DNA from: an uncultured Desulfatibacillum sp.
GTDB lineage: Bacteria; Desulfobacterota; Desulfobacteria; Desulfobacterales; SpSt-501
Assembly (NCBI GenBank): GCA_964427375.1
Contig: CAYRUF010000006.1
Location: forward strand, 38,892 to 102,891
Length of the DNA stretch: 64,000 nt
Direction of reading: 5' to 3'
The number at the start of each line of letters is the position of its first letter. Within the stretch, counting starts at the first letter, position 1. Shown here one piece after another: positions 281 to 56,566 of the stretch. A program made the position numbers and the translations under genes. The notes below the pieces were generated by a model that worked only from the letters and a program-made list of their open reading frames with translations, was not told where the DNA came from and did no database searches.

Positions 281-390
281 TACCGGATTCAATACCCCAA
301 TGCAACGGCAAAATCAACATTCGGTCGCCGGCCGAAACCCTTGTTCCCCAAACCTTGAAAGTGCCGGCCATTCTGGTTATAAGTGGCTGC

Positions 391-1299
391 ATGATCATGC
401 CGCTGCTGCGGGCCGCTGCCATTTTTCTTCTGGTGCTTTCCGGCGGAGCGTGCGCGCATCTGCCGCGGAGCCGGCCGGTTGGTATCGACGCGGCGGCCGT
501 TCGAGACCTCGGCCCCGTTCAGGCGGTTCTCGAGTCAGCGGACGGCGCTTCCGCGCATCTGCTGTTGACCGAGATCGGGCGGATCGCCTATCCGGGGATG
601 GACGCTCCCATCTGGCGGGTCGCCTATCGTCCGTTCCAGCCGGACCTGAAGCAGGTCCTGGTTCTGGCCGGAACCCACGGCAATGAGACCGCCGGATTGG
701 AGGCTGCGCTGGCCCTGATTGAGCGCCTGCGCTCGGCCCCGGGATCCGACACGCTGTACGACCTGGATATCATCCCGTTGATCAACCCCTGGGGATGGGT
801 TCACGATCGCCCCTTGACCCAGGCGGGGATCGATATCGCCGATGACTTCAACCGGTTCGATTCAAGGGAAGCCAGGATCGTCCGGCGCTTCCTGCGGGGC
901 AAGCGCTATGATCTCGTGCTCGACCTGCGGGAGGACCCACGCGCCGCGGGGTTCTATTTGAGGCAGTATGCCAGCGGCCGGATCGAAGCGGCGGCCCGGA
1001 TCATCGACCGGATGCGCGCCGCAGGCGACCCCATCGAGAGCAATTCGGACCGGGTTCTGCTGAAACCCCAAAACGGCGTCCTCGATGTGCCCGGCTGGAG
1101 CTTGGCGGTGATGCGGTGGACCCGCCGGCTGACCATGGCCGGATACATTCGCCAGAACGTCAGCAACATGGTGTTCAGTGTCGTCACCCCGGCGAACCTT
1201 CCGCTGCCCGACCGCGTCGCCATGCAGCGGGTGGCGGCGGAGGGACTGCTGGCTGAATTCGCCGGACCGGCAGATCCGGCCGAGCGCGCGCCGGATTGA
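391..1299 (+). CDS. M14-family zinc carboxypeptidase / succinylglutamate desuccinylase-like protein, probably exported
   Basis: ORF 355-1299 (TTG at 355, first ATG at 391). N-terminus MIMPLLRAAAIFLLVLSGGAC looks like a signal/lipobox. LAGTHGNETAG is the HxxE zinc motif. PLINPWG is typical of the fold. Confidence 0.8.
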   Translation: MIMPLLRAAAIFLLVLSGGACAHLPRSRPVGIDAAAVRDLGPVQAVLESADGASAHLLLTEIGRIAYPGMDAPIWRVAYRPFQPDLKQVLVLAGTHGNETAGLEAALALIERLRSAPGSDTLYDLDIIPLINPWGWVHDRPLTQAGIDIADDFNRFDSREARIVRRFLRGKRYDLVLDLREDPRAAGFYLRQYASGRIEAAARIIDRMRAAGDPIESNSDRVLLKPQNGVLDVPGWSLAVMRWTRRLTMAGYIRQNVSNMVFSVVTPANLPLPDRVAMQRVAAEGLLAEFAGPADPAERAPD

Positions 1300-1847: not shown

Positions 1848-2426
1848 ATGGCAACACCCTGGAAAGTTGAATTCGGCCGCAGGGTCGCAGCGCTCCTGCT
1901 GCTGGGAATGATCGGGGTCTGGACGCATCCGCTCGCGACGGCCGGGGAGCCGGAGCGGTCCTGGGGGCAGACGGTGTATGTGCCGGTCTATTCGCACATC
2001 CTCTACGGCGACCGCGGCGCCGCGTTCAACCTGGCCACGACGCTGGCCATCCGCAACGCCGACCCGGGCCAGTCCCTCTCGGTGATATCGGCGGACTATT
2101 ACGACTCCGGCGGACGCCTCATCCAAAAATACCTCCGCGGGCCGGTGGTGCTGAAACCGCTTGCTTCCACCGAGATTTTCATTCCCGAGAGCGACACCAG
2201 CGGCGGCTTCGGGGCGAGCTTCCTCGTCCGCTGGGCCTCGGCAGAAGCGGTCGTTCCGCCGATCATCGAATGCCTCATGATTGGAGCCCGCTCCGGCCAG
2301 GGCATCTCTTTCGTCAGCCACAGCCGCGTGGTTCAGGAGGCCCCCCCCGGGCAATCTGGGCACAAGGGCCGACCGCCGGCGCCGGCCATCAAGCCTGATA
2401 AACCAGCAACTAGTCATCAAGATTGA
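1848..2426 (+). CDS. DUF3124-like secreted protein
   Basis: ATG at 1848 after AAAGGGAG. Signal-like RRVAALLLLGMIGVWTHPLATA. Conserved-looking QTVYVPVYSHILYG ... TLAIRNAD ... ISADYYDSGGRL ... GGFGASFLVRW. Confidence 0.7.
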   Translation: MATPWKVEFGRRVAALLLLGMIGVWTHPLATAGEPERSWGQTVYVPVYSHILYGDRGAAFNLATTLAIRNADPGQSLSVISADYYDSGGRLIQKYLRGPVVLKPLASTEIFIPESDTSGGFGASFLVRWASAEAVVPPIIECLMIGARSGQGISFVSHSRVVQEAPPGQSGHKGRPPAPAIKPDKPATSHQD

Positions 2427-2523
2427 TGCGCGGGAGTTCGGTGAAACAAGTGTGCGGCGGACCGCTTCGCGCGCGGGAAGTGCTGAATGGGAGCGGGGAG
2501 GATCAGCCAGCGATCCGGCGGCG

Positions 2524-3360
2524 CTAGTTGATCTCGGTCAAGACTTGGTATTTGCGGGCCGCGCTGCGGTGGCGGAAGAGGGTCGCAGGCATTTCAACCG
2601 AACGGAAGCGATCGTCGGTAGCGGTCTGAGGATCGAAAACGCGCAGCACGTAGGGCTGGCGGTGGCTGCCGGTCGCCTCATTCAGCCACCGCGCGGCTTC
2701 GGCGACCTCATCCGGGGTCAGGCAGCGGATGGCCTCCGGGCCCTCTTCCGCCCGCACGACGGGCGCAACCGTGGTCTCGAATCGGTACTCGGGGAACCGG
2801 ACCGCCAGCGCCATGCTGCGCTGGACCTCCTCCGTATCAACCGGTCCTCCGGTCATCGCCGCGTAAAGCGGCCGCGGCCCCTTCAGCTCCATGATCACCC
2901 GGTCGCCCAGCCCTTCGGCAAGCAGCCGCTCCAGAACCGCGGCCTTCCGGCCGTCGGTGTCCAACTGCAGCTTCAGGCCGATCCGCTTCAGAAAGCCCAG
3001 AACCGCGAGCAGGTCCTCCAGCGCGGCCGGCTCGCCCTTCGAGACGTGCAGCCCCCCGACCCAGCCCTTGGAAACCTCGCTGCGGCCGATGAACCCGTCG
3101 AGCCGGTTTGCGGCCTGCAGCCAGGCGATGACGGCCGCGACGCCCTGACGGACCTCGGATCCGTCGGCCAGGATGGGGAATTCTATGCCGTCGGCTCCCC
3201 GAACGATGGCCGCGCGGTGCGTCCGGTAGAATGCCCCGAAGCGCTCCTTCCCCTCCCCGATCGCGTCGTGCTCGTCGAAAACCAGATTCTGCTCGTGCAT
3301 GAATTTCTTGGCGATCCGGCAGCGCGCACAGCCGGTTGCCGTAAAAAGGACCAGACTCAT
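2524..3360 (-). CDS. Glutaredoxin/NrdH-like CxxC domain fused to a radical-SAM-activase-like domain lacking the CX3CX2C cluster
   Basis: ATG at 3360 with GAGGAG RBS, 12 nt after the ASST-like stop. N-terminus MSLVLFTATGCARCRIAKKF (CxxC). C-terminal GGLHVSKGEP...LKLQLDTDGRK resembles the GGE and TNG regions of NrdG/PflA-type activases. Confidence 0.75.
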   Translation of the reverse strand: MSLVLFTATGCARCRIAKKFMHEQNLVFDEHDAIGEGKERFGAFYRTHRAAIVRGADGIEFPILADGSEVRQGVAAVIAWLQAANRLDGFIGRSEVSKGWVGGLHVSKGEPAALEDLLAVLGFLKRIGLKLQLDTDGRKAAVLERLLAEGLGDRVIMELKGPRPLYAAMTGGPVDTEEVQRSMALAVRFPEYRFETTVAPVVRAEEGPEAIRCLTPDEVAEAARWLNEATGSHRQPYVLRVFDPQTATDDRFRSVEMPATLFRHRSAARKYQVLTEIN

Positions 3361-3372
3361 CCGGGCGTCTCC

Positions 3373-4815
3373 TCAACTCGTTTCGACCACATCGGTGCGC
3401 ACGCACAGCGCCGCATCCGGCCGGTACGGCAGGACACCCGCGACGCTCACGGTGCGGCGCGCTCCCGGCGGCGAGGCGCCCGGCACCCGGAAGCGCGTCA
3501 CGTCGATGCGTTCGATCGCCCGTTCGGCCGGTTTTTCGATCTGCGGCACCCATTCGTAAGGCACCCGGTAGGCGCGGTAGATCATGTTGATCTTCAGCAT
3601 CCGGCCCCAATAGGGGCTGATGTACTCCCAGACGATCTCATGGCCGGCGGTGACCTCGATGAGGCGGCCGCCCGAGCCCTCGGTGATCAGGGTGTTCCCG
3701 TTCGGCAGGCGCTGGGCCGAGCTGATGAAGGGGCTGTAGAACCGGTTCGCATCCACCGGGAACGCCAGCCCGGCCTCGACCGGCGTGTACTGCCAGACGA
3801 CCTGCAGCGAGACCGGATCGATTTCGAGCACCCGCGAATAATCGCGCAGTGCGTTCCTGAATCCCGTGGGCGAACCGGGGTTGGGCGCCCCGTAGCCGGC
3901 CCAGCCGCCGTTGTCGAAGACCAGGATGTGGCCCTCGCCGGGAAGCCCGCGCGGAATCATGTGGGCGTGGTGCTGGCCGATGATCCATCCCAGCCGTCGC
4001 AGCTCGGCGGTCTCATCGTAGGTGGGGCCGAGGCGCCAGACGATCCGGCCGGTCTGCTTGTCGACGATGGCCGTGATGTTGGATTCCCGCGCGCACCAGA
4101 TGATGTTGTCCGGGTGGAAGCGCCGGTCGCCCGCGTCGAACCAGCGGTTGGGTCCCAGCAGCGACATGGAGTTGATGTGCATCCAGTCGCCGGCCCCGCC
4201 CCCGGACTTCAGCCAGTTGGGGTTGCGGAACAGGAGGTTCTTGGCGTCCTCCCGGAAGCCGAGCTCGTCGAAATGCTCGCTGCACACCCATTCCCAGATC
4301 ACCTCGCCCTCCCAGTCGACCTCGATGATGCTGTCGTCCAGGAGCGGCTTGTCGCAGATGGCGGGATTCCTCACGTTCTTGTGGGAGAGGATCATGGTGC
4401 GGCCCCGGTCGGTCAGGGGCTCCAGGCCCGGGGCATAGTAGCCCACCGGATTGCCTTCGCGCTGGTAGTCGTGATGCTGCCGGGCCATCCATTGCGGCGC
4501 TTCGCCGGGGTCCTCGATGAACTCGTACTGGTTGAAGCGCCAGACCACGTTGCCGTCCCAGTCCACCTGGACCAGGTCGATCCCGTCCTGGCTGCCGAAG
4601 GCCGTGCTGCGCTCACCGGTGCTGCCGATCAGGTGGCCGCCCGGCAGAATGCGATTGGGCATCCCGTGCAGCTCCTTCCACAGCTGGACTTCGCCGCCGT
4701 TCATGTCGATCAGCAGCGCCCCCACCTCCTTGGCCTGGAACACGGTGTAGCCGTTCCAACACCGGCCGGGGTCGTAGAGCGTCGTTCCGGTGGGAAAGAT
4801 ACTGGGATAGGTCAT
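3373..4815 (-). CDS. Arylsulfotransferase (ASST) family beta-propeller protein, no signal peptide
   Basis: Track ORF 3373-5274 overlaps tctA. The realistic start is ATG 4815 (MTYPSIFPTG) preceded by AGGAGG at 4825-4830. WDGNVVWRF, EGEVIWEW, GRIVWRL, LQVVWQY and GHEIVWEY are repeated propeller blades typical of ASST-like proteins. Confidence 0.8.
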   Translation of the reverse strand: MTYPSIFPTGTTLYDPGRCWNGYTVFQAKEVGALLIDMNGGEVQLWKELHGMPNRILPGGHLIGSTGERSTAFGSQDGIDLVQVDWDGNVVWRFNQYEFIEDPGEAPQWMARQHHDYQREGNPVGYYAPGLEPLTDRGRTMILSHKNVRNPAICDKPLLDDSIIEVDWEGEVIWEWVCSEHFDELGFREDAKNLLFRNPNWLKSGGGAGDWMHINSMSLLGPNRWFDAGDRRFHPDNIIWCARESNITAIVDKQTGRIVWRLGPTYDETAELRRLGWIIGQHHAHMIPRGLPGEGHILVFDNGGWAGYGAPNPGSPTGFRNALRDYSRVLEIDPVSLQVVWQYTPVEAGLAFPVDANRFYSPFISSAQRLPNGNTLITEGSGGRLIEVTAGHEIVWEYISPYWGRMLKINMIYRAYRVPYEWVPQIEKPAERAIERIDVTRFRVPGASPPGARRTVSVAGVLPYRPDAALCVRTDVVETS

Positions 4816-4835
4816 TTGCTGTTGCCTCCTGAATG

Positions 4836-6338
4836 TTAGTCTTCTTTGAATGCCGTCTCCCGCCCGCGGCGGATGCCCGGCAGAGCCACCGCGATCAGCA
4901 TGCCCGCCGCGAGGACGAGGAAGGCCAGCGACAGGGGGCGCGCAACGAACACGGACGGGTCGCCGCGCGAAAGCAGCATGGCCCGCCGCAGGTTTTCCTC
5001 CAGCATCGGGCCCAGGACAAAACCCAGGATGAGCGGGGCCGGCTCGCATTCGAGCTTGTGGAACACGTAGCCGAGCAGCCCGCACAGGGCCGTCAGTCCG
5101 ATGTCGAAGGTGTTGTTGTTCACGCTGTAGAGCCCGATGCAGCAGAACACCAGGATCGCGGGATACAGCAGGCGGTAGGGAACCGAGAGCAGCCGCACCC
5201 AGATCCCCACCAGCGGCAGGTTCAGCACCACCAGGATGATGTTGCCGAGCCACATGGAAACGATGACGCCCCAAAAAAGGGCCGGGTTGCTGGTGATGAC
5301 CCGCGGACCCGGCTGGATGCCGTGGATCATCATGGCGCCGGCCATCATCGCCAGGATCACGTTGGGCGGGATGCCGAGCGTGAGCAGCGGCACGAAGGAG
5401 GTCTGGGCCGCCGCGTTGTTGGCCGATTCGGGGGCGGCCACCCCGCGAATGTCACCCTGGCCGAAGCGCCCCGGGTCGTGCGCGCACTTCTTCTCGATCA
5501 TGTAGGCCGTAAACGATGAGATGATCGCCCCGCCGCCCGGCAGGATCCCCAGAAGCGAGCCGCACAGGGTGCCGCGCAGCACGGCCGGCGCGGCCGCGCG
5601 AAGGTCCTCCTTCTTCAGCCACAGCCCGGTGAGCTGGCTCTTCAGGATGTCGCGCTTCTCGCGCTTTTCGAGGCTGTTGATGATGTCGCAGATGCCGAAA
5701 AGGCCCATGGCCAGGGACACGAATCCGATGCCGTCGGCCAGTTCGGTAATCCCGAACGTGAAGCGGTGCGCGCCGCTGGTGACATCGGTCCCGATCATGC
5801 CCAGCAGCAGCCCGATCGCAATCATGCCGACCGCCTTGAGCATGGACCCGGAGGCCAGCACGACCGAGCCGATCAGACCGAAGACCATGAGCGAGAAGTA
5901 CTCCGCCGGCCCGAACCGGAACGCCAGCTCGGACAGCGGCACCGCCAGAACGGCCAGGACCAGGGTGGCGAAGGAGCCGGCCGCGAACGAGCCCAGGGCC
6001 GAAATGGTCAGCGCCGCGCCGGCCCGCCCCTGCCGCGCCATCTGGTGCCCGTCGAGGCAGGTCACGACCGAGGAGGCCTCGCCCGGCACGTTCACCAAAA
6101 TGGAGGTCGTCGACCCGCCGTACTGGGCGCCGTAGTAGATGCCGGCCAGCATGATCAGCGCCGAGACCGGCGGCAGGGCGAACGTGGTGGGCAGGAGAAT
6201 GGCGATGGTCTGGACCGGGCCGATGCCCGGCAGGACCCCGATGAGGGTGCCGATCAGGGCTCCGACCAGGCAGTATAGAAGATTCATGGGAGTGACGGCA
6301 GTCTGGAATCCGAGCGCCAAATTGGACAGCAGTTCCAT
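4836..6338 (-). CDS. tctA: Tripartite tricarboxylate transporter large permease TctA
   Basis: 500 aa polytopic protein. MELLSNLALGFQTAVTPMNLLYCLVGALIGTLIGVLPGIGPV is a typical TctA N-terminus. Confidence 0.9.
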   Translation of the reverse strand: MELLSNLALGFQTAVTPMNLLYCLVGALIGTLIGVLPGIGPVQTIAILLPTTFALPPVSALIMLAGIYYGAQYGGSTTSILVNVPGEASSVVTCLDGHQMARQGRAGAALTISALGSFAAGSFATLVLAVLAVPLSELAFRFGPAEYFSLMVFGLIGSVVLASGSMLKAVGMIAIGLLLGMIGTDVTSGAHRFTFGITELADGIGFVSLAMGLFGICDIINSLEKREKRDILKSQLTGLWLKKEDLRAAAPAVLRGTLCGSLLGILPGGGAIISSFTAYMIEKKCAHDPGRFGQGDIRGVAAPESANNAAAQTSFVPLLTLGIPPNVILAMMAGAMMIHGIQPGPRVITSNPALFWGVIVSMWLGNIILVVLNLPLVGIWVRLLSVPYRLLYPAILVFCCIGLYSVNNNTFDIGLTALCGLLGYVFHKLECEPAPLILGFVLGPMLEENLRRAMLLSRGDPSVFVARPLSLAFLVLAAGMLIAVALPGIRRGRETAFKED

Positions 6339-6359
6339 GAAACATCCACCCCTGGCCGT

Positions 6360-6827
6360 TCAGAAACGGCCAGCGATAAAGGAGGGCCAGACCGGCAATT
6401 GGAAATCGAGGAAGTAGACGAACACCGCCAGCACGATGCCGGTCAGCGCGGCGGCATTCAGGAGTGCTTCCTTCCAGCGAAATTCATGGCTGGCCCGGCT
6501 GGCGAGAACGACGAGGGCGGCGGTCGACAGCAGCAGTCCCAGTGGTTTCAGGATCTGGCTGAAAAGCACCACCGAAACGAGGATGATCGCCACGGGCTTG
6601 AGCTGCAGAGCCGGCCACCGGGAGGATTCCTGGCGCCCTGCGACCCCTCTCAGCAGGATCAGGCCGCCGAGCACGACTAAAAACCCGCCGAGCACGAGCG
6701 GGAAATACCCCGGCCCCATTTTGGCGGCGCTGCCGATCGTCAGGCCGAACGACAGGACCATGGCCGCCGCGCCGAAAAAAACGAACATCACGCCGGTCAG
6801 GAAATCCTTCGGATGCCGGATGCGCAT
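6360..6827 (-). CDS. tctB: Tripartite tricarboxylate transporter small permease TctB
   Basis: 155 aa four-TM protein 21 nt upstream of tctA, at the usual TctB position and size. Confidence 0.8.
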   Translation of the reverse strand: MRIRHPKDFLTGVMFVFFGAAAMVLSFGLTIGSAAKMGPGYFPLVLGGFLVVLGGLILLRGVAGRQESSRWPALQLKPVAIILVSVVLFSQILKPLGLLLSTAALVVLASRASHEFRWKEALLNAAALTGIVLAVFVYFLDFQLPVWPSFIAGRF

Positions 6828-6898
6828 GGAAAATCCTTTTCGGTTCTTATCATTGACATCCGTTCATCGCCCTCTGTTGGAATGGCGCAGGGATGCCT

Positions 6899-7115
6899 GG
6901 AGGGGGGCTGCGCCTCGCAGGAGCCGCCGCAATTTTTCCGGCAGCGGTCTCAACGGCAGCAATCCCGCTCAGATACGCCCAGAAAGCCCCAAACCGAAGC
7001 GCCCCACGACGGAGGCTGCCGTCACTGCCAGTGCGGAGCCATCCTAAAAGTTATCGGGGCGTGACGAAGCCTCGGCGTCTTTTGCGGCGGCCCCTGCGAG
7101 GCGCAGCCCCCCTCC
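6899..7115. repeat. 217-bp element bounded by 32-bp terminal inverted repeats (31/32 match), inside the tctC-tctB spacer
   Basis: GGAGGGGGGCTGCGCCTCGCAGGAGCCGCCGC at 6899-6930. Its reverse complement lies at 7084-7115 with one mismatch. Confidence 0.7.
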
Positions 7116-7164
7116 GGGTCTTCTTTATCAATGAGCAAATCGCTCGATTTCGGACGAAGCCAAT

Positions 7165-8127
7165 CTATTCGGCCTTGAACCCGGACGCCTGGATGATCGG
7201 CACCCAGCGCTCGCGGTCCTTCTTGAAAACGGCGCCGCATTCCTCCGGCGTGGTTCCGGCCGGATCGCTGCCCATCCCCTTGATCTTCTCAACGACGTCC
7301 GCTGACTGCACCGCCTTGACAACGGCCGCGCTCAGCTTGTCGATGACGGGTTTGGGAGTCTTGGCCGGCACGACGAGAGCGTTCCAGCCCACTCCCTCGA
7401 TCTCCGGAAAGCCCGCTTCCTTGAAGGTGGGGATGTCCGGCTGCTTGCGCGAAGTTCCGGCCGTGGCCAGGATGCGGATCTTGTCCGGATGGTAGGCCGA
7501 CTGGGCATCATAGGCATCGACGCCGATCGGAATCTGGTTGCCGATCAAGGCGGTCACCAGCGGACCCGACCCGTTGTAGGAGGAATGCACCATCTCGACC
7601 CCCGCCGCCTTGCCGATCATGAGGCCGAAAAAATGCGGCAAGCTGCCGGCGGCCGGAGATCCGTAGTTGGCCTGGTTCGGGTTTTTCTGGATCCATTCGA
7701 TCAGGCCTTTGACGTCCTTGATCGGCGAGGCCGGCGGCACCGAGGCGCAGAACTGGTAGACCTGGATGAGAGACACCGGTGCGAAGTCGGCATCCGGGTC
7801 GTAGGCCAGCTTGGAGAACACCACCGGCGCCACGACGAACAGGGCCGGGTTCACCAGCAGCAGCGTGGTGCCGTCCGCCGGCTGGCCCTTGGCGTACTCC
7901 GTACCGATGCGCCCGCCGGCGCCGGGCTTGTTTTCCACAATCACCGTCTGGCCGAGGGAATCCTTCAGCTTGTCCGCGATGAGCCGGGCCACCACATCCG
8001 AGCCGCCACCCGCCGGGTACGGCACGACGATCTTGATGGGGCCTTTGATTTCCTGGGCGGATAGCATGCCCCCTCCGCCAAGAACGACCATCATGGCCAC
8101 CAGCACCCCGATGCAGCATCTACGCAT
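7165..8127 (-). CDS. tctC: Tripartite tricarboxylate transporter substrate-binding protein TctC (Bug family)
   Basis: ATG 8127 after AGGAGG. Signal peptide, then IKIVVPYPAGGGSDVVARLIADKL, a typical Bug/TctC motif. Confidence 0.9.
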   Translation of the reverse strand: MRRCCIGVLVAMMVVLGGGGMLSAQEIKGPIKIVVPYPAGGGSDVVARLIADKLKDSLGQTVIVENKPGAGGRIGTEYAKGQPADGTTLLLVNPALFVVAPVVFSKLAYDPDADFAPVSLIQVYQFCASVPPASPIKDVKGLIEWIQKNPNQANYGSPAAGSLPHFFGLMIGKAAGVEMVHSSYNGSGPLVTALIGNQIPIGVDAYDAQSAYHPDKIRILATAGTSRKQPDIPTFKEAGFPEIEGVGWNALVVPAKTPKPVIDKLSAAVVKAVQSADVVEKIKGMGSDPAGTTPEECGAVFKKDRERWVPIIQASGFKAE

Positions 8128-8273: not shown

Positions 8274-9035
8274 ATGGTCTTCATGCCCGTCAAGCAGAAC
8301 CGCATCGCGGTCGAAATCGTCAGCCAGCTCAAGGCGGCGATCCTCTCCGGCCGGTTCAAGCCCGGCGAGCGCCTGCCCACCGAACGGGAACTGACCGAAC
8401 AGTTCCAGGTCAGCCGGGTGGTGGTCCGGGAAGCGGTCCGGGAGCTTGAAATCAAGGGGCTGGTCAAAATTCTGCAGGGCCCCACCGGCGGCGCCTATGT
8501 GACCGATCTGTCCCTGGACCACCTCAACAGCGCCTTCCTGGATCTTTTTCTCTACAATCGGGTGTCGGTGGCGGAGCTGATCGCCGCCCGCCGGTTGGTC
8601 GAGTGCGAAATCGCCCGAATCGCCGCGGCGCGCATCGAAGACCGGGGCGCCCGGCGGCTGCAGGAGGCCCTCGACGTCGAACAGCACGACAGCCCGTCGC
8701 ATGCCGAGTTCGTCTCCAACCGCTTGAAGTTTCATTATCTCCTGGCCGAACTGAGCGGCAACCGGCTGCTGCAGGCCATCGCCGGCGCGCTGTTTCGGCT
8801 GACGGGCGACGTGATCCTGGAGGTCAAGCCGGTCAGGCAAGTGATCCATCGGCCGAAGGAACATGCCGAGATCCTGGCCGCCATTCTGGATCACGACGGC
8901 CGGGCCGCCGCCCAAGCCATGCAGCGCCACCTGGAGAACATGGGCCGGCAGTTGACCCGGCTGGAGGGAATCTATCGCCGGCGAAGGGGGCTGGCAGACG
9001 ACTCCGGTCTATCCGGACGGGGAGGCGCTCAATGA
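8274..9035 (+). CDS. GntR-family transcriptional regulator with FCD (FadR C-terminal) domain
   Basis: N-terminal wHTH ERLPTERELTEQFQVSRVVVREAVRELEIKGLV followed by a helical FCD-like C-terminus. Divergent from tctC. Confidence 0.9.
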   Translation: MVFMPVKQNRIAVEIVSQLKAAILSGRFKPGERLPTERELTEQFQVSRVVVREAVRELEIKGLVKILQGPTGGAYVTDLSLDHLNSAFLDLFLYNRVSVAELIAARRLVECEIARIAAARIEDRGARRLQEALDVEQHDSPSHAEFVSNRLKFHYLLAELSGNRLLQAIAGALFRLTGDVILEVKPVRQVIHRPKEHAEILAAILDHDGRAAAQAMQRHLENMGRQLTRLEGIYRRRRGLADDSGLSGRGGAQ

Positions 9036-28529: not shown

Positions 28530-30461
28530 TTATCCTTGATACACCAGGGACGGCAGCCACAGCCCGATCTGCGGGAACACATACAGCAGGATCAGTGCGA
28601 TCACCTGGATGGCCATGTACGGCATCATCCCCATGAAGATCTGGTTCAGCGAGACGTGCGGCGGCGACACGCCCTTGAGGTAGAACGCGGCCATGGCCAC
28701 CGGCGGCGACAGGAAGGCCGTCTGCAGATTGAGCGCCACGAGCAGGCCGAAGAAAAGCGGGTCGATGTTGAAGTGGGCGAGCAGCGGGATGAAGATCGGC
28801 ATGAAGATGACGATGATCTCAGTCCATTCCAGCGGCCAGCCCAGCAGGAAGATGATGACCTGCGCCAGCAGCATGAACTGCACCGGCGTCATGTCGAGCG
28901 ATTTGACCCACGCATTGATGATCTCCTGGCCGCCGAGCAGGGCGAAGGCTGCGGCGAATATGGCCGAGCCCACGAACAGCCAGCACACCATGGCGCTGGT
29001 CTTGGCGCACAGGAACACGGATTCCTTGACCCGGCCGAAGGTGAGCTGCCGGTAGGCCGCCGCCAGCACGAACCCGCCGAAGGAGCCCATGGCCGCCGCC
29101 TCGGTCGGCGTGGCCAGGCCGACCACGATGGAGCCGAGCACCCCGAGGATCAACAGCGCCAGCGGGAAGAAGGAGCTCAGCAGCATCTTGAAGATCTCGA
29201 GCCGCACGAAGGTGAAGATCGCGTAGAAAATCAGAAGCCCGGCGGCGACAATGGCAAGCGTGACCCAATAGGCGGTCGGCACGGGCTTGCGCTCGCCCGC
29301 AGCGGTCTCCGTGGTTTGAGGATTTTCCGGCGTGGCGGCCTCAGCCGGTTTCGGACTCTCGACAGCGGTTTCGGCCGCAGCCGACGCATCAGGCTCCCCT
29401 TCAGCCGGCGGCTCCTGCAGCCCGCCGGCCTCTTCCGGCTCATCCAGATCCCCGGCCTGCTCTTGGGCCGCCCCGAAGCCCATTTCTTGCAGCTCACTTG
29501 GCACCACGTAGTCTGGAGCGGTCGCCGCAAGGTAGATCGAGCCCATCAGCAGGCCGGCCGCCAGTGCCGGCAGCAGCGCGATCAACAGGTGAGCCAACAA
29601 GGTCCGCAGCGGTACCTCGGCGTTGCGCGGGCCCTTGAGCGCGCCGATCAGACCCGCCATGACGTTCCGCCGGGTCCTGGAGATGATCTCGGCGAATTTC
29701 GGCAGATCGACCCGCTGGTCTTCCGCGGAGAGCGGCGGCGCGATGCCCGGTCTGAGTTTGGCGTTTATAACAATCCAGAGGACATACATCGTCGCCAGCA
29801 TGATGCCGGGGAAGAAGGCGCCGGCATAGAGCTGCACCACCGACACCCCGGCCGTGGCGCCGTATAAAATGAGCAGCACCGAAGGCGGGATCAGGATGCC
29901 GAGCGTGCCGCCGGCGGTTACGGAACCCGCCGCCAATCGGACGTTGTAGCCGGCCTTGAGCATGGCCGGAAACGCGAGCAAGCCCATCAGGGTTACCACG
30001 GCGCCGATGATACCCGTGGCGGTGGCGAAGACCGCACAGGTCACGACGGTGGCTACCGCCAGCGACCCGGGGATGGCCGAGGTCGCCAGGTGCAGGCTCT
30101 TGAACAGCCGCTCGATCAGGTTGGCGCGTTCGACCAGGTAGCCCATGAAAACGAAAAGCGGTACCGAAATCAGCACGTCGTTGTTCATGACCGCGTAAGC
30201 GCGCTGGACCATCAGGTCGAGCGTACGGGCCACCGCCGTCGCGGGATTGGTGCTGTAGTAGAAGAAAAAAGTGAACATCGTGCCCATGCCCATCAGGGTG
30301 AACGCCGTGGGGAACCCCAACATGATCGCGATCACGATCATGGCGAGCATCAGCAGGCCCAGGTGCCCGTTGGTCATCTGCGACGGCGGCGGCATCATCC
30401 AGAACACTCCGATCACCACCAGAGCCATGATCGAGAGGCCGAACCAGACTTCCTTTCTCAT
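28530..30461 (-). CDS. dctM: TRAP transporter large permease DctM with a 77-aa acidic/Pro-rich insertion
   Basis: 643 aa polytopic DctM-like sequence. The low-complexity insert is encoded at about 29286-29516. Confidence 0.9.
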   Translation of the reverse strand: MRKEVWFGLSIMALVVIGVFWMMPPPSQMTNGHLGLLMLAMIVIAIMLGFPTAFTLMGMGTMFTFFFYYSTNPATAVARTLDLMVQRAYAVMNNDVLISVPLFVFMGYLVERANLIERLFKSLHLATSAIPGSLAVATVVTCAVFATATGIIGAVVTLMGLLAFPAMLKAGYNVRLAAGSVTAGGTLGILIPPSVLLILYGATAGVSVVQLYAGAFFPGIMLATMYVLWIVINAKLRPGIAPPLSAEDQRVDLPKFAEIISRTRRNVMAGLIGALKGPRNAEVPLRTLLAHLLIALLPALAAGLLMGSIYLAATAPDYVVPSELQEMGFGAAQEQAGDLDEPEEAGGLQEPPAEGEPDASAAAETAVESPKPAEAATPENPQTTETAAGERKPVPTAYWVTLAIVAAGLLIFYAIFTFVRLEIFKMLLSSFFPLALLILGVLGSIVVGLATPTEAAAMGSFGGFVLAAAYRQLTFGRVKESVFLCAKTSAMVCWLFVGSAIFAAAFALLGGQEIINAWVKSLDMTPVQFMLLAQVIIFLLGWPLEWTEIIVIFMPIFIPLLAHFNIDPLFFGLLVALNLQTAFLSPPVAMAAFYLKGVSPPHVSLNQIFMGMMPYMAIQVIALILLYVFPQIGLWLPSLVYQG

Positions 30462-31084
30462 GCGCCGCCTCCCTTCTTGGCCGTCACATACTGATCCAGC
30501 TTGGCGATATCCTCATCCTTGACCTTCACCATCTCTTTCAGTTTGTCGACGTCCACCTCCTCGACGTCCTCCTGACGCGAGGGCCACTTTCCCTGCTTCA
30601 GGCAGAGGACGCAGCGGATCATCTCGACGATGCCTTGCACCAGAATGAAGGCGCCGGCGACCGGGATGACGGTCTTGAACGGGTAGATCGGCGGGCCTTC
30701 CGAGGTGATGCTCGATCGCTCCCAGATGGCCCAGGATTCCGCGGCATACGTGTAGCCGGCCCAGCACAGGGCGACCACCCCGGGAAGGAAAAAGACGAAA
30801 TACAACGTCAAATCCAGACCGGCCTGCAGCCGCGGCGGGAAAAAGCCGTAGAGCACATCGCCGCGCACGTGGCTGTTCTTTGAAAGCGCATAGGCGCCCG
30901 ACATCATGAAGAGAGTGCCGTACATCTGGAGCATCATGTCGAAGGCATAGGCATGCGGAGCGTCCAGCGCGTAACGCGAGAAGATTTCATAAGTGATGAG
31001 AAAGGTAAGCGACACGATGAGCCAGGAGAAGACCTTGCCCACAAACGTGCTGATCTTGTCGATGGTGAGCAGTATTTTCTGCAT
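30458..31084 (-). CDS. dctQ: TRAP transporter small permease DctQ
   Basis: 208 aa, 4 TM, 4-nt overlap with dctM. Confidence 0.85.
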   Translation of the reverse strand: MQKILLTIDKISTFVGKVFSWLIVSLTFLITYEIFSRYALDAPHAYAFDMMLQMYGTLFMMSGAYALSKNSHVRGDVLYGFFPPRLQAGLDLTLYFVFFLPGVVALCWAGYTYAAESWAIWERSSITSEGPPIYPFKTVIPVAGAFILVQGIVEMIRCVLCLKQGKWPSRQEDVEEVDVDKLKEMVKVKDEDIAKLDQYVTAKKGGGA

Positions 31085-31100
31085 GGTCGATCCTAATCAG

Positions 31101-31139
31101 AAATCAGCCATCCGGGTGCGAAACCCGGATGGCTGATTT
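31101..31139 (-). terminator. Perfect 17-bp stem hairpin between dctP and dctQ (intercistronic attenuator / mRNA stabiliser)
   Basis: AAATCAGCCATCCGGGT-GCGAA-ACCCGGATGGCTGATTT. Confidence 0.5.
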
Positions 31140-31157
31140 GTAATTCACCAAAATGCT

Positions 31158-32309
31158 TCAGCTTTTCTTCTTGGCGAAGTAATGGTTGTACGCCATGCGC
31201 CGGCTCACGTTGGTATCCTGGTCCCAGGGAACCGCGCGTGTGGCAAAGGCCTTCTGGGATTCAAGAATTTCCTTGAACAGGGGGTTCTCGGCCGACTTCT
31301 TGGCCGCGACCTGGTCGAAGACGTCGAGCTGCTTCTGCAGGATCGGGTCGGGGGTCTTGTAGAACTTGACCTTGTCCTTGGTCTGCAGTTCGACGTAGTC
31401 TTTGGAATAGCGGTCGATCGCCTTCCAGGACAGGTCCGCCGAGGCTGCCTCCACGGCGTTTTCGATGATGGCCTTCATCTTGTCCGGCAGGGCATTGTAC
31501 TTGGTCTTGTTGAACAGGATCTCAAACGACTCGGCGTTTTGGTGGTAGCTCTGCAGCATGCACACCTTGGACACGTCCGGGAACCCCAGTAGCCGGTCGG
31601 AGGTGGCGTTGTTGAATTCCGCGCCGTCGAGCAGGCCGCGGTCCAAGGCCGGCACGATCTCGCCGCCGGGCAGGGCGTTCACCGCCGCGCCCATGCCGGT
31701 AAAAAGGTCGATCGAAATTCCGACGGTACGGAACTTGAGGCCCTTGAGATCCTCCACCTTGGCGATCGGCTTCTTGAACCAGCCGAGCGGCTGGGTCGTC
31801 ATCGGGCCGTAGGCGAACGAAACGACGTCCGCGCCGATGGACGCATAGATCTTGGCCAGCAGCTCCTTGCCGCCGCCGTACTTGTGCCAGGACAGCAGCA
31901 TGTTGGCGTCCATGCCGAAGGCCGGGCTCGAGCCCCAGAGGGCCAGGGCGTTCTGCTTGCCGTAGTGGTAGACGAACACGCCGTGGCCGCCGTCGAGGGT
32001 GCCCTTGGACACCGCGTCCAGCAGCCCGAAGGCCGGCACCACCGCCCCGGCCGGCAGCACCTCGATCTTGAGATCCCCGCCGGTCATGTCGTTCACCTTC
32101 TTGGCGAAGTCGAGGGCGTATTCGTGAAAAATATCCTTGGTCGGCCAGGTGCTCTGCCAGCGCATGGTAATCGGCCCCTGGGCCTTGGCGACCATGGGAA
32201 AGCCCAGCGCCGCTGCTCCGGCCGCGGCCGCGGTTAGAAACCCTCTGCGGCTGACACCTTTTCTGACCTTGCCCTCTTTCTGCTTCGCACCGACTTTCTT
32301 TTCGTTCAT
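31158..32309 (-). CDS. dctP: TRAP transporter substrate-binding protein DctP with Tat signal
   Basis: SRRGFLTAAAAGAAALGFPMVAKAQG twin-arginine leader, followed by a DctP-like body. Confidence 0.9.
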   Translation of the reverse strand: MNEKKVGAKQKEGKVRKGVSRRGFLTAAAAGAAALGFPMVAKAQGPITMRWQSTWPTKDIFHEYALDFAKKVNDMTGGDLKIEVLPAGAVVPAFGLLDAVSKGTLDGGHGVFVYHYGKQNALALWGSSPAFGMDANMLLSWHKYGGGKELLAKIYASIGADVVSFAYGPMTTQPLGWFKKPIAKVEDLKGLKFRTVGISIDLFTGMGAAVNALPGGEIVPALDRGLLDGAEFNNATSDRLLGFPDVSKVCMLQSYHQNAESFEILFNKTKYNALPDKMKAIIENAVEAASADLSWKAIDRYSKDYVELQTKDKVKFYKTPDPILQKQLDVFDQVAAKKSAENPLFKEILESQKAFATRAVPWDQDTNVSRRMAYNHYFAKKKS

Positions 32310-55033: not shown

Positions 55034-56566
55034 TTAACGCCGCCATGCCATCAATCGAGAAAAAATCTTCTTGGCAAAAGGCGTGAGACGCGTGCGATTG
55101 AAAGCATCGCCGACCTGGCGCACGGCTTCGGCCTGCGTCGGATACGGATGAATGGCGGCGGCGATGTTTTTGAGCCCCAGCCCGTTCGTCATCGCCAGGG
55201 TGATCTCGGATATCATGTCCCCGGCGTTTTGGGCCACGATCGTGGCCCCGGCGATCTGATCGCTGCCCTTGCGCACATGCACGCGGACAAAGCCCTTGGT
55301 TCGGCCTTCGAGGATAGCTCGGTCCACCTCGGATAGCTCCCGCGTGAAGGTATCCAGCGCGACCCCCTGCTCCTCGGCCTGTTTCGGATAGAGCCCGACA
55401 TGGGCAATTTCCGGCTCCGTGTAGGTGCACCATGGAATCGTCAATGCGCTGGCCTTGGCGCGGCCGAAAAAAAGCGCGTTTCGGATCACGGTGCGCGCCA
55501 TGACATCGGCGGCATGCGTGAATTGATAGGGCGAGCAGATGTCGCCGGCCGCGTAAATGTCGGGCTGCGTCGTCTGAAGCTGATCATTTACCTGAACGCC
55601 CTTCTTGGAATACGCCACCCCGGCCGCTTCCAGCCCCAATCGCTCCACGTTCGGGGAGCGTCCGACGGCGACCAGGAGCTTGTCCACGACCTCGTCGTAG
55701 TTTTTCGAGTGAGATTCCACCGACAGGCGCACCCGTCCCCCATCCGCCTTGGACAGCTTCAGTTCCTGGCCGCAGCAAAGGAGCCTGACACCGTCTTTGA
55801 GCAGAGACCCCAAGACGATCTCGGAGGCATCAGAGTCCTCGCGCGGCAGGATGCCATGGGTGGCCTCGACCAGGAACACTTCAGCGCCGAAGCGGGCAAA
55901 GCTCTGGGCCATCTCGCAGCCGATGGGCCCGGCGCCGATCACGGCCAGGCGCTTGGGCAGCCCCGTCAAGGAGAAGAGGGTTTCGTTGGTCAGGTATTCC
56001 ACCTCGCCCAGCCCCGGAATGGGCGGGGCCGAGGCCCGGGCGCCGGTGGCGATGACGGCTTTCTTGAAGCGGAGCTTCTCCCCCGCAACCTCAATGGTAT
56101 GGGAATCCACAAACCGTCCGTTGCCGATGAAGACATCGACCCCCAGTCGGCTGAACCGCTTGGCGGAGTCGTTCGGGGCGATGGACGCCCGCAGCCGACG
56201 CATACGCTCCATGACGTGGCCGAAATCGACCTGCACCCCCTCCGGCACTCGAACTCCGAACTCGGCTGCATCCCGCACGGCCGCCGCCGCCCGCGCCGCT
56301 GCGATCAGCGCCTTCGAGGGAACGCAGCCGACGTTGAGACAGTCCCCTCCCATCAGATGGCGTTCGACCAGCGCCACTTTTGCACCTAATCCGGCCGCAC
56401 CGGCTGCACTGACCAGCCCGGCGGTCCCGGCTCCGATCACGACCAGATTGTAGCGCTCAGCGGGCTTCGGGTTGGTCCAATCGAACGGGTGGACCAGGGA
56501 GGCCAAGTTCCGGTTGTGTTCATCCCATGGGCGAACAATCGGGATCCCATTATTATTTTCCGACAT
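55034..56566 (-). CDS. Class I pyridine nucleotide-disulfide oxidoreductase (mercuric reductase / dihydrolipoamide dehydrogenase-like)
   Basis: Start MSENNNG at 56566 after AAGGAG. VVIGAGTAGL, redox disulfide GGDCLNVGCVPSK, C-terminal dimerisation domain. Confidence 0.9.
   Translation of the reverse strand: MSENNNGIPIVRPWDEHNRNLASLVHPFDWTNPKPAERYNLVVIGAGTAGLVSAAGAAGLGAKVALVERHLMGGDCLNVGCVPSKALIAAARAAAAVRDAAEFGVRVPEGVQVDFGHVMERMRRLRASIAPNDSAKRFSRLGVDVFIGNGRFVDSHTIEVAGEKLRFKKAVIATGARASAPPIPGLGEVEYLTNETLFSLTGLPKRLAVIGAGPIGCEMAQSFARFGAEVFLVEATHGILPREDSDASEIVLGSLLKDGVRLLCCGQELKLSKADGGRVRLSVESHSKNYDEVVDKLLVAVGRSPNVERLGLEAAGVAYSKKGVQVNDQLQTTQPDIYAAGDICSPYQFTHAADVMARTVIRNALFFGRAKASALTIPWCTYTEPEIAHVGLYPKQAEEQGVALDTFTRELSEVDRAILEGRTKGFVRVHVRKGSDQIAGATIVAQNAGDMISEITLAMTNGLGLKNIAAAIHPYPTQAEAVRQVGDAFNRTRLTPFAKKIFSRLMAWRR

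Follow-up and report, generated by a model that had tools for sequence, protein, structure and literature searches.

Activases of glycyl-radical enzymes, such as the pyruvate formate-lyase activating enzyme (PFL-AE), accommodate the glycine loop at the C-terminus of a client protein in the opening of their barrel. Members of the aryl-sulfate sulfotransferase (ASST) family transfer a sulfuryl group through a sulfo-histidine intermediate. In 3'-phosphoadenosine 5'-phosphosulfate (PAPS) reductase, an S-sulfocysteine is formed on a cysteine of the C-terminal tail and resolved to sulfite by thioredoxin, and in Mycobacterium tuberculosis, electrons reach AhpC over a relay of dihydrolipoyl dehydrogenase (Lpd), lipoylated DlaT and AhpD, a CxxC protein. 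Here, we analyzed a stretch of 64,000 nucleotides, referred to as the window, from an uncultured Desulfatibacillum sp. (Desulfobacterota; contig CAYRUF010000006.1, positions 38,892 to 102,891), which encodes a protein that is compared with these systems below. This 278-aa protein, encoded at positions 2524-3360 of the minus strand and named GRS hereafter, combines an N-terminal glutaredoxin-like domain with a C-terminal barrel that is homologous to NrdG2-type radical S-adenosylmethionine (SAM) activases and lacks their Fe-S cluster motif. Its gene lies next to that of an ASST-like β-propeller. Very probably, GRS is a cluster-less, repurposed activase scaffold that is functionally paired with the ASST-like enzyme. 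The overall explanation that we favor, with a probability of roughly 0.5, is that this former activase acts as a dithiol oxidoreductase or adaptor for that enzyme.

As proposed in an initial annotation of this DNA, the C-terminal part of GRS is akin to the core of an activase. The homology spans the last ~185 residues. The NrdG2 model TIGR02495 matches residues 97-207 at profile positions 59-172 of 193 (E = 3.9e-13; 49.2 bits versus a cut-off of 131.15), and the Radical_SAM model PF04055 matches residues 97-187 below its threshold (E = 0.0018; 18.9 versus 29.5 bits). A profile of the GRS family retrieves canonical radical-SAM proteins of ~250 aa with E-values from 1e-20 to 1e-32, in which query residues ~95-280 align with the target from residue ~57 to its end. 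Five of these canonical relatives were scanned against NCBIfam, and all five exceed the TIGR02495 cut-off (132-181 bits). In a joint alignment (A3), the closest cluster-bearing relatives are 27-32% identical to GRS and correspond motif for motif. The GRS motif GW.GG.HVS.G[DE]P, the former GGE motif, pairs with W.dG..iSGGEP of NrdG2, and LQLDT[DN]G, the former TNG motif, pairs with vKLDTNG. Similarly, DR..M[DE].KGP (in its extended form DRV.M[DE].KGP..LY) aligns with vDYvAMDvKgP..lY, FPEYRF.TTV.P (FPEYRF.TTVAPV) with FPdYEFRTT.vP, and QPY.L..F.P (QPYVLR.F.P) with hKYfLQkF. The two motif pairings suggested initially are thereby recovered, as GLHVSKGEP aligns with GLxISGGEP and LQLDTDGRK with VKLDTNGSN. 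The AlphaFold2 (AF2) model of GRS is confident, with a mean predicted local distance difference test (pLDDT) of 90.1 and a predicted template-modeling score (pTM) of 0.87. From residue 101 on, it shows the alternating strands and helices of a partial (β/α)6 TIM barrel. The top Foldseek matches in the PDB are PFL-AE (3can domain, 8fo0), DesII, BioB, BlsE, viperin and NifB, all with a probability of 1.00. Profile and fold searches thus agree on the NrdG2 kinship, which disposes of the possibility, raised together with the initial proposal, that the C-terminal part might prove unrelated to the radical-SAM fold. In addition to the shared motifs, GRS carries a family-specific C-terminal motif, [HY]R[ST]AAR[KR].QV (YR(S/T)AAR.QV in its common form), that is absent from canonical NrdG2 proteins.

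The canonical relatives carry GCNFxCxxCHN, and with it the CX3CX2C motif that binds the cluster, at residues ~26-33. In GRS, the motif is missing, as the initial annotation had noted for the open reading frame (ORF). The six frames of window positions 2200-3800 contain no C-x3-C-x2-C, and neither does any of 120 GRS homologues. The architecture as a whole is far beyond chance. Without CX3CX2C there is no [4Fe-4S] cluster of the activase type either. An upstream exon or a frameshift supplying the motif, which had been considered as well, is ruled out by its absence from every frame of this region, a strong Shine-Dalgarno sequence and a conserved N-terminus. The only cysteines that are invariant in a 28-sequence alignment of the family are C11 and C14. 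The ~55 residues that make up the hairpin at the N-terminus, strand 1 and its cluster loop, and helix 1 in the closest relatives with a cluster have no counterpart in GRS. In their place, it has ~95 residues comprising a glutaredoxin fold and a linker. No transitional forms with both a glutaredoxin domain and an intact cluster motif were found among the representative matches inspected, and the longer relatives P0227, P0250 and P0264 are NrdG2 proteins of the canonical kind that contain insertions rather than fusions. MAFFT pairs VLFTATGCARC of GRS with VLFTNGCNFHCGFC of the canonical radical-SAM relatives. This suggests that the redoxin domain may have grown from the former strand 1 and its loop instead of being grafted as a whole; a chance similarity of two 'strand-Cys-loop-helix' starts would explain the pairing equally well.

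The N-terminal domain has a thioredoxin/glutaredoxin fold. The glutaredoxin-like domain with a CxxC motif predicted at the outset is confirmed by the AF2 model, Pfam, NCBIfam and Foldseek; its proposed span of residues 1-75 did not hold, as the domain extends over residues ~3-87. In the AF2 model, its topology is β-α-β-α-β-β-α (strands at residues 3-7, 28-32, 63-66 and 69-72; helices at 12-23, 38-47 and 74-87), and in Foldseek this part resembles thioredoxin folds of the Spx type. The Pfam model Glutaredoxin (PF00462) hits residues 4-32 with E = 0.004 (17.7 bits, below the gathering threshold of 22.9), and reaches E < 0.01 in 26 of 28 GRS family members, with 3.3e-6 as the best value. The NCBIfam models NrdH (TIGR02194), YruB (TIGR02196) and Uxx-star give weak matches to residues 3-36. 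A sequence search of the PDB yields marginal matches only, namely human Grx2 (the best, itself weak) and PqqE. Invariant in the domain are C11-x-R13-C14 at the start of helix 1, F61-P62 and an FYR..R..R(G/D) motif. The CxxC motif at the N-terminus of helix 1 and the cis-Pro loop position are both features of the thioredoxin fold; F61-P62 would occupy the latter position, and a cis conformation of P62 is predicted. Like the NrdH, YruB and PF00462 redoxins, GRS thus presents strand 1, CxxC and helix 1 in succession, the same order of secondary structure elements and a proline before strand 3. Unlike them, it scores below all curated cut-offs, has a CxRC motif with an invariant arginine and is fused to a barrel, while neither a recognizable glutathione-binding motif nor the WSGFRP motif of NrdH is present.

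Despite its radical-SAM fold and clear NrdG2 ancestry, GRS should, as judged from these comparisons, be filed neither as a radical-SAM enzyme nor as an activase, because the cluster motif is missing and every curated threshold is failed. The name 'pyruvate formate lyase activating enzyme', under which homologues occur in source databases besides 'glutaredoxin' and 'hypothetical', is therefore a misannotation, and no curated Pfam or NCBIfam family covers GRS. Radical-SAM homologues without a cluster are already a known category. The pseudo-SAM/SPASM proteins (NCBIfam TIGR04347) likewise lack the cluster cysteines and set a precedent for non-radical descendants. They are of the SPASM type and belong to another branch of the superfamily, whereas GRS has a glutaredoxin domain and is linked to ASST-like genes. 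The GRS module could be something new: the near-constant pairing with an ASST-like enzyme that bears a tail cysteine hints at an undescribed thiol redox system of anaerobes that reduce sulfate or sulfite.

GRS represents a sizable and well-conserved family. A search of 5.8 billion proteins returned 263 homologues at E <= 0.001. Nearly all of those listed are 278-285 aa long, are covered over their full length and share 56-100% identity. The 28-sequence alignment (A1) has a mean column identity of 73% with 53 invariant columns, and the start codon and N-terminus are kept across the family. Among 1.84 billion cluster representatives, 88 proteins were retrieved with a profile at E < 1e-30, including a divergent subfamily of ~255-270 aa with the motifs CIRC, GHGWTGG and YRTAARRWQV, so that the family as a whole ranges from ~255 to 290 aa. 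Kept in all branches are C11-x-R13-C14, FYR..R..R[GD]..G[IV].FP, F61-P62, the GW.GG strand and [HY]R[ST]AAR[KR].QV. The motifs that contact SAM in radical-SAM enzymes are less stable. Firmicute members have MNVLGP or MNVLAP where D-x-K stood, and neither GGE nor D-x-K survives in the divergent subfamily. As the linkage to ASST-like genes is retained in branches with and without these motifs, SAM binding does not appear to be the conserved function of the family. What appears to be conserved instead, as far as alignments tell, is the dithiol together with several invariant arginines, while the barrel persists as a scaffold. The hosts belong to Desulfobacterota, Bacillota and other phyla, and the great majority of them reduce sulfate or sulfite (Desulfobacterales, Desulfosporosinus, Desulforamulus, Neomoorella sulfitireducens). 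SAR324, Woeseiaceae, Veillonellaceae and methanogen metagenome-assembled genomes (MAGs) contribute a few loci. Cultured strains that encode GRS include Desulforamulus reducens MI-1 (Dred_0364), D. ruminis, Desulfosporosinus spp. and N. sulfitireducens.

The putative partner of GRS in the window is a protein of 480 aa. It exceeds the Pfam thresholds of PF05935 (E = 1.9e-19; 70.4 versus 24.2 bits) and PF14269 (E = 3.7e-14; 53.3 versus 27 bits), and together with its propeller fold and histidine motifs this places it in the ASST family. The ASST-like proteins encoded beside GRS are 60-96% identical across phyla, and an alignment of 40 of them contains 140 invariant columns. The invariant histidine motifs are HHD (114-116), H213-x-N215 and H282-H283-x-H285 (QHHAH), the last of which lines up with the segment QHD in Cpz4, a sulfotransferase. 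Structures of Cpz4 (9kf6 and 9kf4) are also the best Foldseek matches of the AF2 model (E ~2e-15). A profile search of the PDB retrieves Cpz4 only (E = 8e-4), and a sequence search of the PDB gives no match. The clade counts more than 6,400 matches at E < 1e-10, which go by the names 'aryl-sulfate sulfotransferase', 'hypothetical' or 'thioredoxin'. The AF2 model shows a β-propeller (pLDDT 71.7, pTM 0.80), in which the tail at residues 459-480 has a pLDDT below 50; the last 22 residues are accordingly predicted to form a disordered arm. C471 is located in this arm, ~10 residues before the C-terminus, in the context ...(Y)(R/Q)(P/G)-DAALCV... (...DAALCVRTD... in the window protein). It is the sole invariant cysteine of the protein, both in the 40 sequences and in a set of 22, and is kept in the ASST-like partners of the divergent GRS subfamily (GVCVVTD). 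A putative enzyme of the sulfuryl-transfer type thus carries one invariant cysteine on a C-terminal tail that is predicted to be flexible, as in the PAPS reductase analogy. Two other cysteines, C19 and C178, occur in 36 of 40 homologues each and could form a structural or redox pair. D. reducens MI-1 (CP000612) has two ASST-like paralogues with ~73-74% identity to the window protein. One is part of a full cluster (L059, 8001-13796) and the other is solitary (L061, 8001-9446); both have the tail cysteine.

To map gene neighborhoods, 53 GRS loci were taken from GTDB species representatives, supplemented with further loci found by exact protein look-up. Neighbors were assigned by targeted tblastn, and 52 loci had enough flanking DNA to be informative. 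A proportion of 48 of these 52 contains an ASST-like gene, mostly adjacent to GRS and on either side, so that the question raised in the initial annotation, whether the homologues always neighbor such genes, is answered in the affirmative. For the divergent subfamily, this is the case in two out of three loci examined (L066 and L069), where GRS stands beside an ASST-like gene and TctABC. The order GntR/TctC-TctB-TctA-ASST-GRS, with the regulator gene divergent, recurs in ~20 loci. The accompanying transporter is of the TTT type (TctABC) in most Desulfobacterales, of the TRAP type (DctPQM) in others and of the DASS type (Na_sulph_symp) in Firmicutes. The regulator varies as well (GntR, IclR, LysR). 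A 460-aa flavoprotein is encoded directly beside GRS in ~17 loci and scores 524 bits with TIGR01350 (dihydrolipoyl dehydrogenase; cut-off 409). A GcvH-like protein (PF01597, E = 4e-40) with the lipoyl-lysine motif ESAK adjoins GRS in ~14 loci, including those of D. reducens MI-1 and D. ruminis. In D. reducens MI-1, a LysR gene is followed by genes for the ASST-like protein (Dred_0361), a DASS transporter, GcvH (Dred_0363, ABO48911), GRS (Dred_0364, ABO48912, 'hypothetical protein') and Lpd (Dred_0365, ABO48913); in D. ruminis, the order is LysR, then GcvH, GRS, ASST-like and Lpd. No gene for a glycyl-radical enzyme, NrdD or other, is found among the called genes of 14 GRS loci examined. With respect to its partner, GRS therefore also differs from the NrdG2 activases: the neighbor is an ASST-like propeller instead of a glycyl-radical enzyme.

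Individual loci add to this picture. A pyrogallol-phloroglucinol transhydroxylase-like molybdoenzyme, composed of an AthL-like large subunit and a Fer4/CarboxypepD_reg small subunit, is encoded in or beside two ASST/GRS clusters (L005, 4810-8240; L049, 1926-5304), which hints at polyphenol or phenolic substrates or products. At locus L065 (2969-9842), a divergent GRS (P0169) is encoded with TctBAC, an unannotated protein of 254 aa, a GGGtGRT protein (PF14057) and a TauE/SafE protein, with no ASST-like gene. Judging by this locus, there may be another type of client enzyme for GRS. The ASST/GRS module is subject to paralogous expansion. A Desulfobacula MAG (L038, 5174-8115) has two tandem ASST-like genes upstream of GcvH-Lpd-GRS, and one N. 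sulfitireducens genome contains two separate GRS/ASST loci (L035 and L049). In another MAG (L069, 3592-6608), the GRS/ASST/Tct cluster is found beside relaxase, NikA-like and integrase genes, and the module may travel on mobile elements. In one Desulfobacterales lineage (L002, 10859-11551; also L003, L004 and L022), a PhnX-like HAD hydrolase gene follows 4 nt after GRS (TIGR03351, 215.5 bits versus a cut-off of 218.9); the window has none. AstE/AspA-like, DUF3124, LarA-like, ABC ATPase and enolase-superfamily neighbors were considered as parts of the module and rejected as lineage-specific synteny.

Within the window, the GRS operon and its divergent regulator have the arrangement listed in Table 1. 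GRS starts with ATG at 3360 and ends with TAG at 2524-2526. Its Shine-Dalgarno sequence, GAGGAG, is located 8 nt before the start and shares bases with the stop codon of the preceding ASST-like gene. Due to this overlap, the ASST-like and GRS genes are translationally coupled and belong to a single operon.

Table 1. Features of the GRS operon and its surroundings (window coordinates; domains are given as parts of their gene).
Feature	Position	Strand	Basis and remarks
GRS gene	2524..3360	-	ORF, homologue family, 28-sequence alignment, AF2 model; glutaredoxin-like domain plus cluster-less barrel of the NrdG2-type radical-SAM fold
GRS, N-terminal thioredoxin/glutaredoxin fold (residues ~3-87)	3100..3354	-	Secondary structure, invariant columns, glutaredoxin-type Pfam/NCBIfam matches, Spx-type structural matches
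GRS, C-terminal partial (β/α) barrel (residues ~95-278)	2527..3078	-	TIGR02495, profile matches, joint alignment, Foldseek; homologous to strands 2-6 of NrdG2 activases
ASST-like/GRS junction, 12 nt	3361..3380	-	Sequence itself; GAGGAG ribosome-binding site on top of the ASST stop codon
ASST-like β-propeller, 480 aa, cytoplasmic	3373..4815	-	Pfam, 40-sequence alignment, AF2, Foldseek; no signal peptide
TctA-TctB-TctC, tripartite tricarboxylate-type transporter	4836..8127	-	ORFs; upstream in the GRS operon
TctA	4836-6338	-	ORF
TctB	6360-6827	-	ORF
TctC	7165-8127	-	ORF
GntR/FCD-family regulator, divergent	8274..9035	+	Pfam GntR (E = 1.5e-19) and FCD (E = 9e-19); position kept across loci

An antisense ORF of 852 aa (2281-4839, plus strand) spans the GRS and ASST-like genes. 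It is an artefact of the high GC content (64.5%) and masks the true genes when genes are called by the longest ORF. Directly downstream of GRS and on the opposite strand, a DUF3124 protein is encoded (1848-2426, plus strand; PF11322, E = 1e-46), which is also found near the cluster in seven related loci. Further away, a protein of 314 aa (355-1299, plus strand) begins with a hydrophobic stretch and contains a catalytic domain of the succinylglutamate desuccinylase/aspartoacylase type (PF24827, E = 6.5e-8). It has homologues near the cluster in nine Desulfobacterales loci, which probably reflects lineage synteny rather than membership of the module. A TRAP-type (DctP/DctQM-like) transporter is encoded at 28539-32114 on the minus strand and shares 24-29% identity with the TRAP systems found instead of TctABC in some GRS clusters elsewhere.

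Taken together, these data allow us to propose how GRS may work. In this view, the ancestor of GRS is an NrdG2-type activase of glycyl-radical enzymes. The hairpin at its N-terminus, strand 1 and the [4Fe-4S] loop with CX3CX2C were lost, a glutaredoxin-like domain with CxRC took their place, and radical-SAM chemistry would have been given up. The barrel, which once would have docked the C-terminal peptide loop of a partner, may now dock the flexible arm of the ASST-like enzyme with C471 and present it to CxRC, located where the cluster used to be. There, the CxRC dithiol could reduce an adduct or disulfide on C471. That GRS is the dithiol redox partner of this tail cysteine is, in our view, an evenly balanced proposition. 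The initial annotation had taken the protein either for a degenerate radical-SAM scaffold with a new role as redox or adaptor protein or for a variant that depends on thiols, and our analysis lends support to this suggestion. The redox or adaptor role in particular is consistent with the frequent adjacency of Lpd and GcvH-like genes, the single invariant cysteine in the ASST tail and the decay of the SAM motifs as opposed to the invariance of CxRC.

As for the chemistry, in the overall reaction that we deem likeliest, an imported sulfated organic anion might give its sulfuryl group first to a histidine of the ASST-like enzyme and then to C471, yielding Cys-S-SO3-, which GRS would resolve to sulfite. 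In this respect, the pair would resemble PAPS/APS reductase (CysH) and thioredoxin, where the ASST-like partner with its single cysteine on a flexible C-terminal tail takes the place of the reductase. The folds are unrelated, however, the donor would be a sulfate ester and not (P)APS, and the intermediate is a proposal here. Where the genes are encoded, GRS might be re-reduced by electrons passing from NAD(P)H over dihydrolipoyl dehydrogenase and a lipoylated GcvH-like carrier to CxRC; elsewhere, including in the window, a housekeeping system would fulfill this task. The relay from NADH over Lpd and a lipoylated carrier to a CxxC adaptor and a client cysteine is like that of Lpd-DlaT-AhpD-AhpC in M. 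tuberculosis, although for GRS it is read from gene order. GRS is not homologous to AhpD, its client would be a sulfotransferase-like propeller and not a peroxiredoxin, and many loci are without Lpd and GcvH. By analogy with the APS/sulfite couple, NADH should be able to reduce an activated sulfate ester to sulfite in an exergonic reaction, and sulfite or sulfate reducers could respire the released sulfite without the ATP cost of sulfate activation. The host range, the anion transporters, one TauE-family neighbor and the transhydroxylase-like molybdenum enzymes in two clusters, which suggest phenolic products, all hint in this direction. Nevertheless, sulfite release from a sulfate ester as the net reaction is a tentative and rather doubtful proposal, and slightly more doubtful is the complete scheme in which the ASST-like enzyme and GRS, with a lipoyl-GcvH-like carrier and Lpd where present, form a new cytoplasmic NADH-driven 'sulfate-ester reductase' that operates via the tail cysteine.

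A number of observations weigh against these proposals. Four loci (L041, L054, L056 and L065) have no ASST-like gene despite long flanks, and the second ASST-like copy of D. reducens is solitary. The clusters of the Desulfobacterales branch, including that of the window, have no Lpd or GcvH gene. The 64-kb window as a whole encodes no GcvH, and its sole Lpd-related flavoprotein disulfide reductase homologue (55100-56458, minus strand; 30% identity) lies ~52 kb from GRS. Nearly all motifs for SAM contact survive in the same branch (S-x-G-[DE]-P, DT[DN]G, [DE]-x-K), and its members may still bind SAM or another nucleoside ligand, while a CxxC motif without proline could ligate a bridging Fe-S cluster. 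The three unrelated transporter families define the substrate as an anion and nothing narrower. A TauE gene of the sulfite-exporter family adjoins one GRS locus, and a small NIR_SIR gene is found 6 kb from the cluster in D. ruminis; both are single cases. Finally, a literature search for the GRS family, its gene module and the D. reducens locus tags returned no paper.

The alternative that survives best, though we deem it unlikely, is that GRS is a maturation or repair factor that forms, isomerizes or reduces a structural or regulatory disulfide of the ASST-like enzyme or modifies its tail cysteine once per molecule, comparable to DsbL/DsbI or the sulfatase-maturating enzymes. The tight linkage of both genes would fit such a role, as would the descent of GRS from an 'activating enzyme', the two further near-invariant cysteines C19 and C178 (36 of 40 each) of the ASST-like protein and the solitary copy in D. 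reducens, which could be served in trans. E. coli ASST needs a dedicated Dsb pair, and GRS resembles DsbL/DsbI of uropathogenic E. coli in being a thioredoxin-fold protein encoded beside an ASST-family enzyme. Yet, DsbL/DsbI are periplasmic and oxidative, whereas GRS and its partner are cytoplasmic proteins of anaerobes with links to reductases that depend on NADH, and the redoxin here forms one chain with a radical-SAM-fold barrel. Disulfide formation is an unlikely need for a cytoplasmic protein of strict anaerobes, and a supply of electrons from NADH (Lpd and a lipoyl carrier) beside GRS in many loci suggests continuous electron flow. Chemistry of the cysteine-to-formylglycine type would be unavailable without an Fe-S cluster or SAM cleavage.

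We consider it improbable that GRS binds a bridging [2Fe-2S] or [4Fe-4S] cluster, either through the CxRC pair of a homodimer or through CxRC together with a cysteine of the partner (ASST C471) or a small thiol, and acts as an electron-transfer or cluster-dependent, possibly SAM-binding, subunit. Cluster-binding glutaredoxins have a CxxC without proline too, human Grx2 provides the best, albeit weak, sequence matches in the PDB, and most SAM-contact motifs are retained in the Desulfobacterales branch. Bridging clusters with two cysteines per monomer are known from NifH and the activators of 2-hydroxyacyl-CoA dehydratases. On the other hand, GRS has only two invariant cysteines, and a cluster held by four cysteines has no free iron for SAM, so radical-SAM chemistry would not follow. 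The SAM motifs are gone in Firmicute and divergent members with the same ASST linkage, and the genes that recur beside GRS encode dithiol/disulfide enzymes (Lpd, GcvH) instead of ferredoxins or flavodoxins.

Slightly less probable still is that GRS acts on the lipoyl protein, as a GcvH reductase, a modifying or demodifying enzyme or a docking protein, or that it is a sensor that binds SAM or a nucleoside and uses CxRC for redox sensing. Such roles could be read from the GcvH-like gene directly beside GRS in ~14 loci, all the more as the radical-SAM lipoyl synthases act on GcvH-type carriers, and from the SAM-contact motifs kept in one branch. Most GRS loci (the window and ~25 Desulfobacterales), however, have no GcvH or Lpd gene nearby and always an ASST-like gene, and the universally conserved feature of a partner is the tail cysteine of the ASST-like enzyme. 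Lastly, a decaying, functionless activase remnant or an annotation or assembly artefact, as might be suspected from scores under the curated cut-offs of every family and from the missing cluster motif, is excluded because GRS is conserved: it has hundreds of full-length homologues of constant length across phyla, 53 invariant columns, a confident AF2 model, a conserved operon position with a coupled ribosome-binding site and a presence in complete genomes of cultured strains.

GRS is a clean example from nature of an activase with a radical-SAM fold in which the cluster appears to have been given up and a dithiol center gained in its place, and it can help to explain how catalytic modules are shed and replaced in the largest enzyme superfamily. 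If the complete scheme of a sulfate-ester reductase holds, GRS would be the first activase scaffold of glycyl-radical enzymes to have exchanged radical chemistry with Fe-S and SAM for that of a dithiol without giving up its role in docking the C-terminal peptide of a partner. At the level of the organisms, GRS marks a widespread module of sulfate and sulfite reducers that consists of an ASST-like enzyme with a tail cysteine, GRS itself, an anion transporter and sometimes GcvH and Lpd. Should this module convert sulfate esters to sulfite, it would open a new route into the anaerobic sulfur cycle and give protein-bound lipoate a further function, and sulfate and sulfite reducers would be able to respire organosulfates without ATP-dependent sulfate activation.

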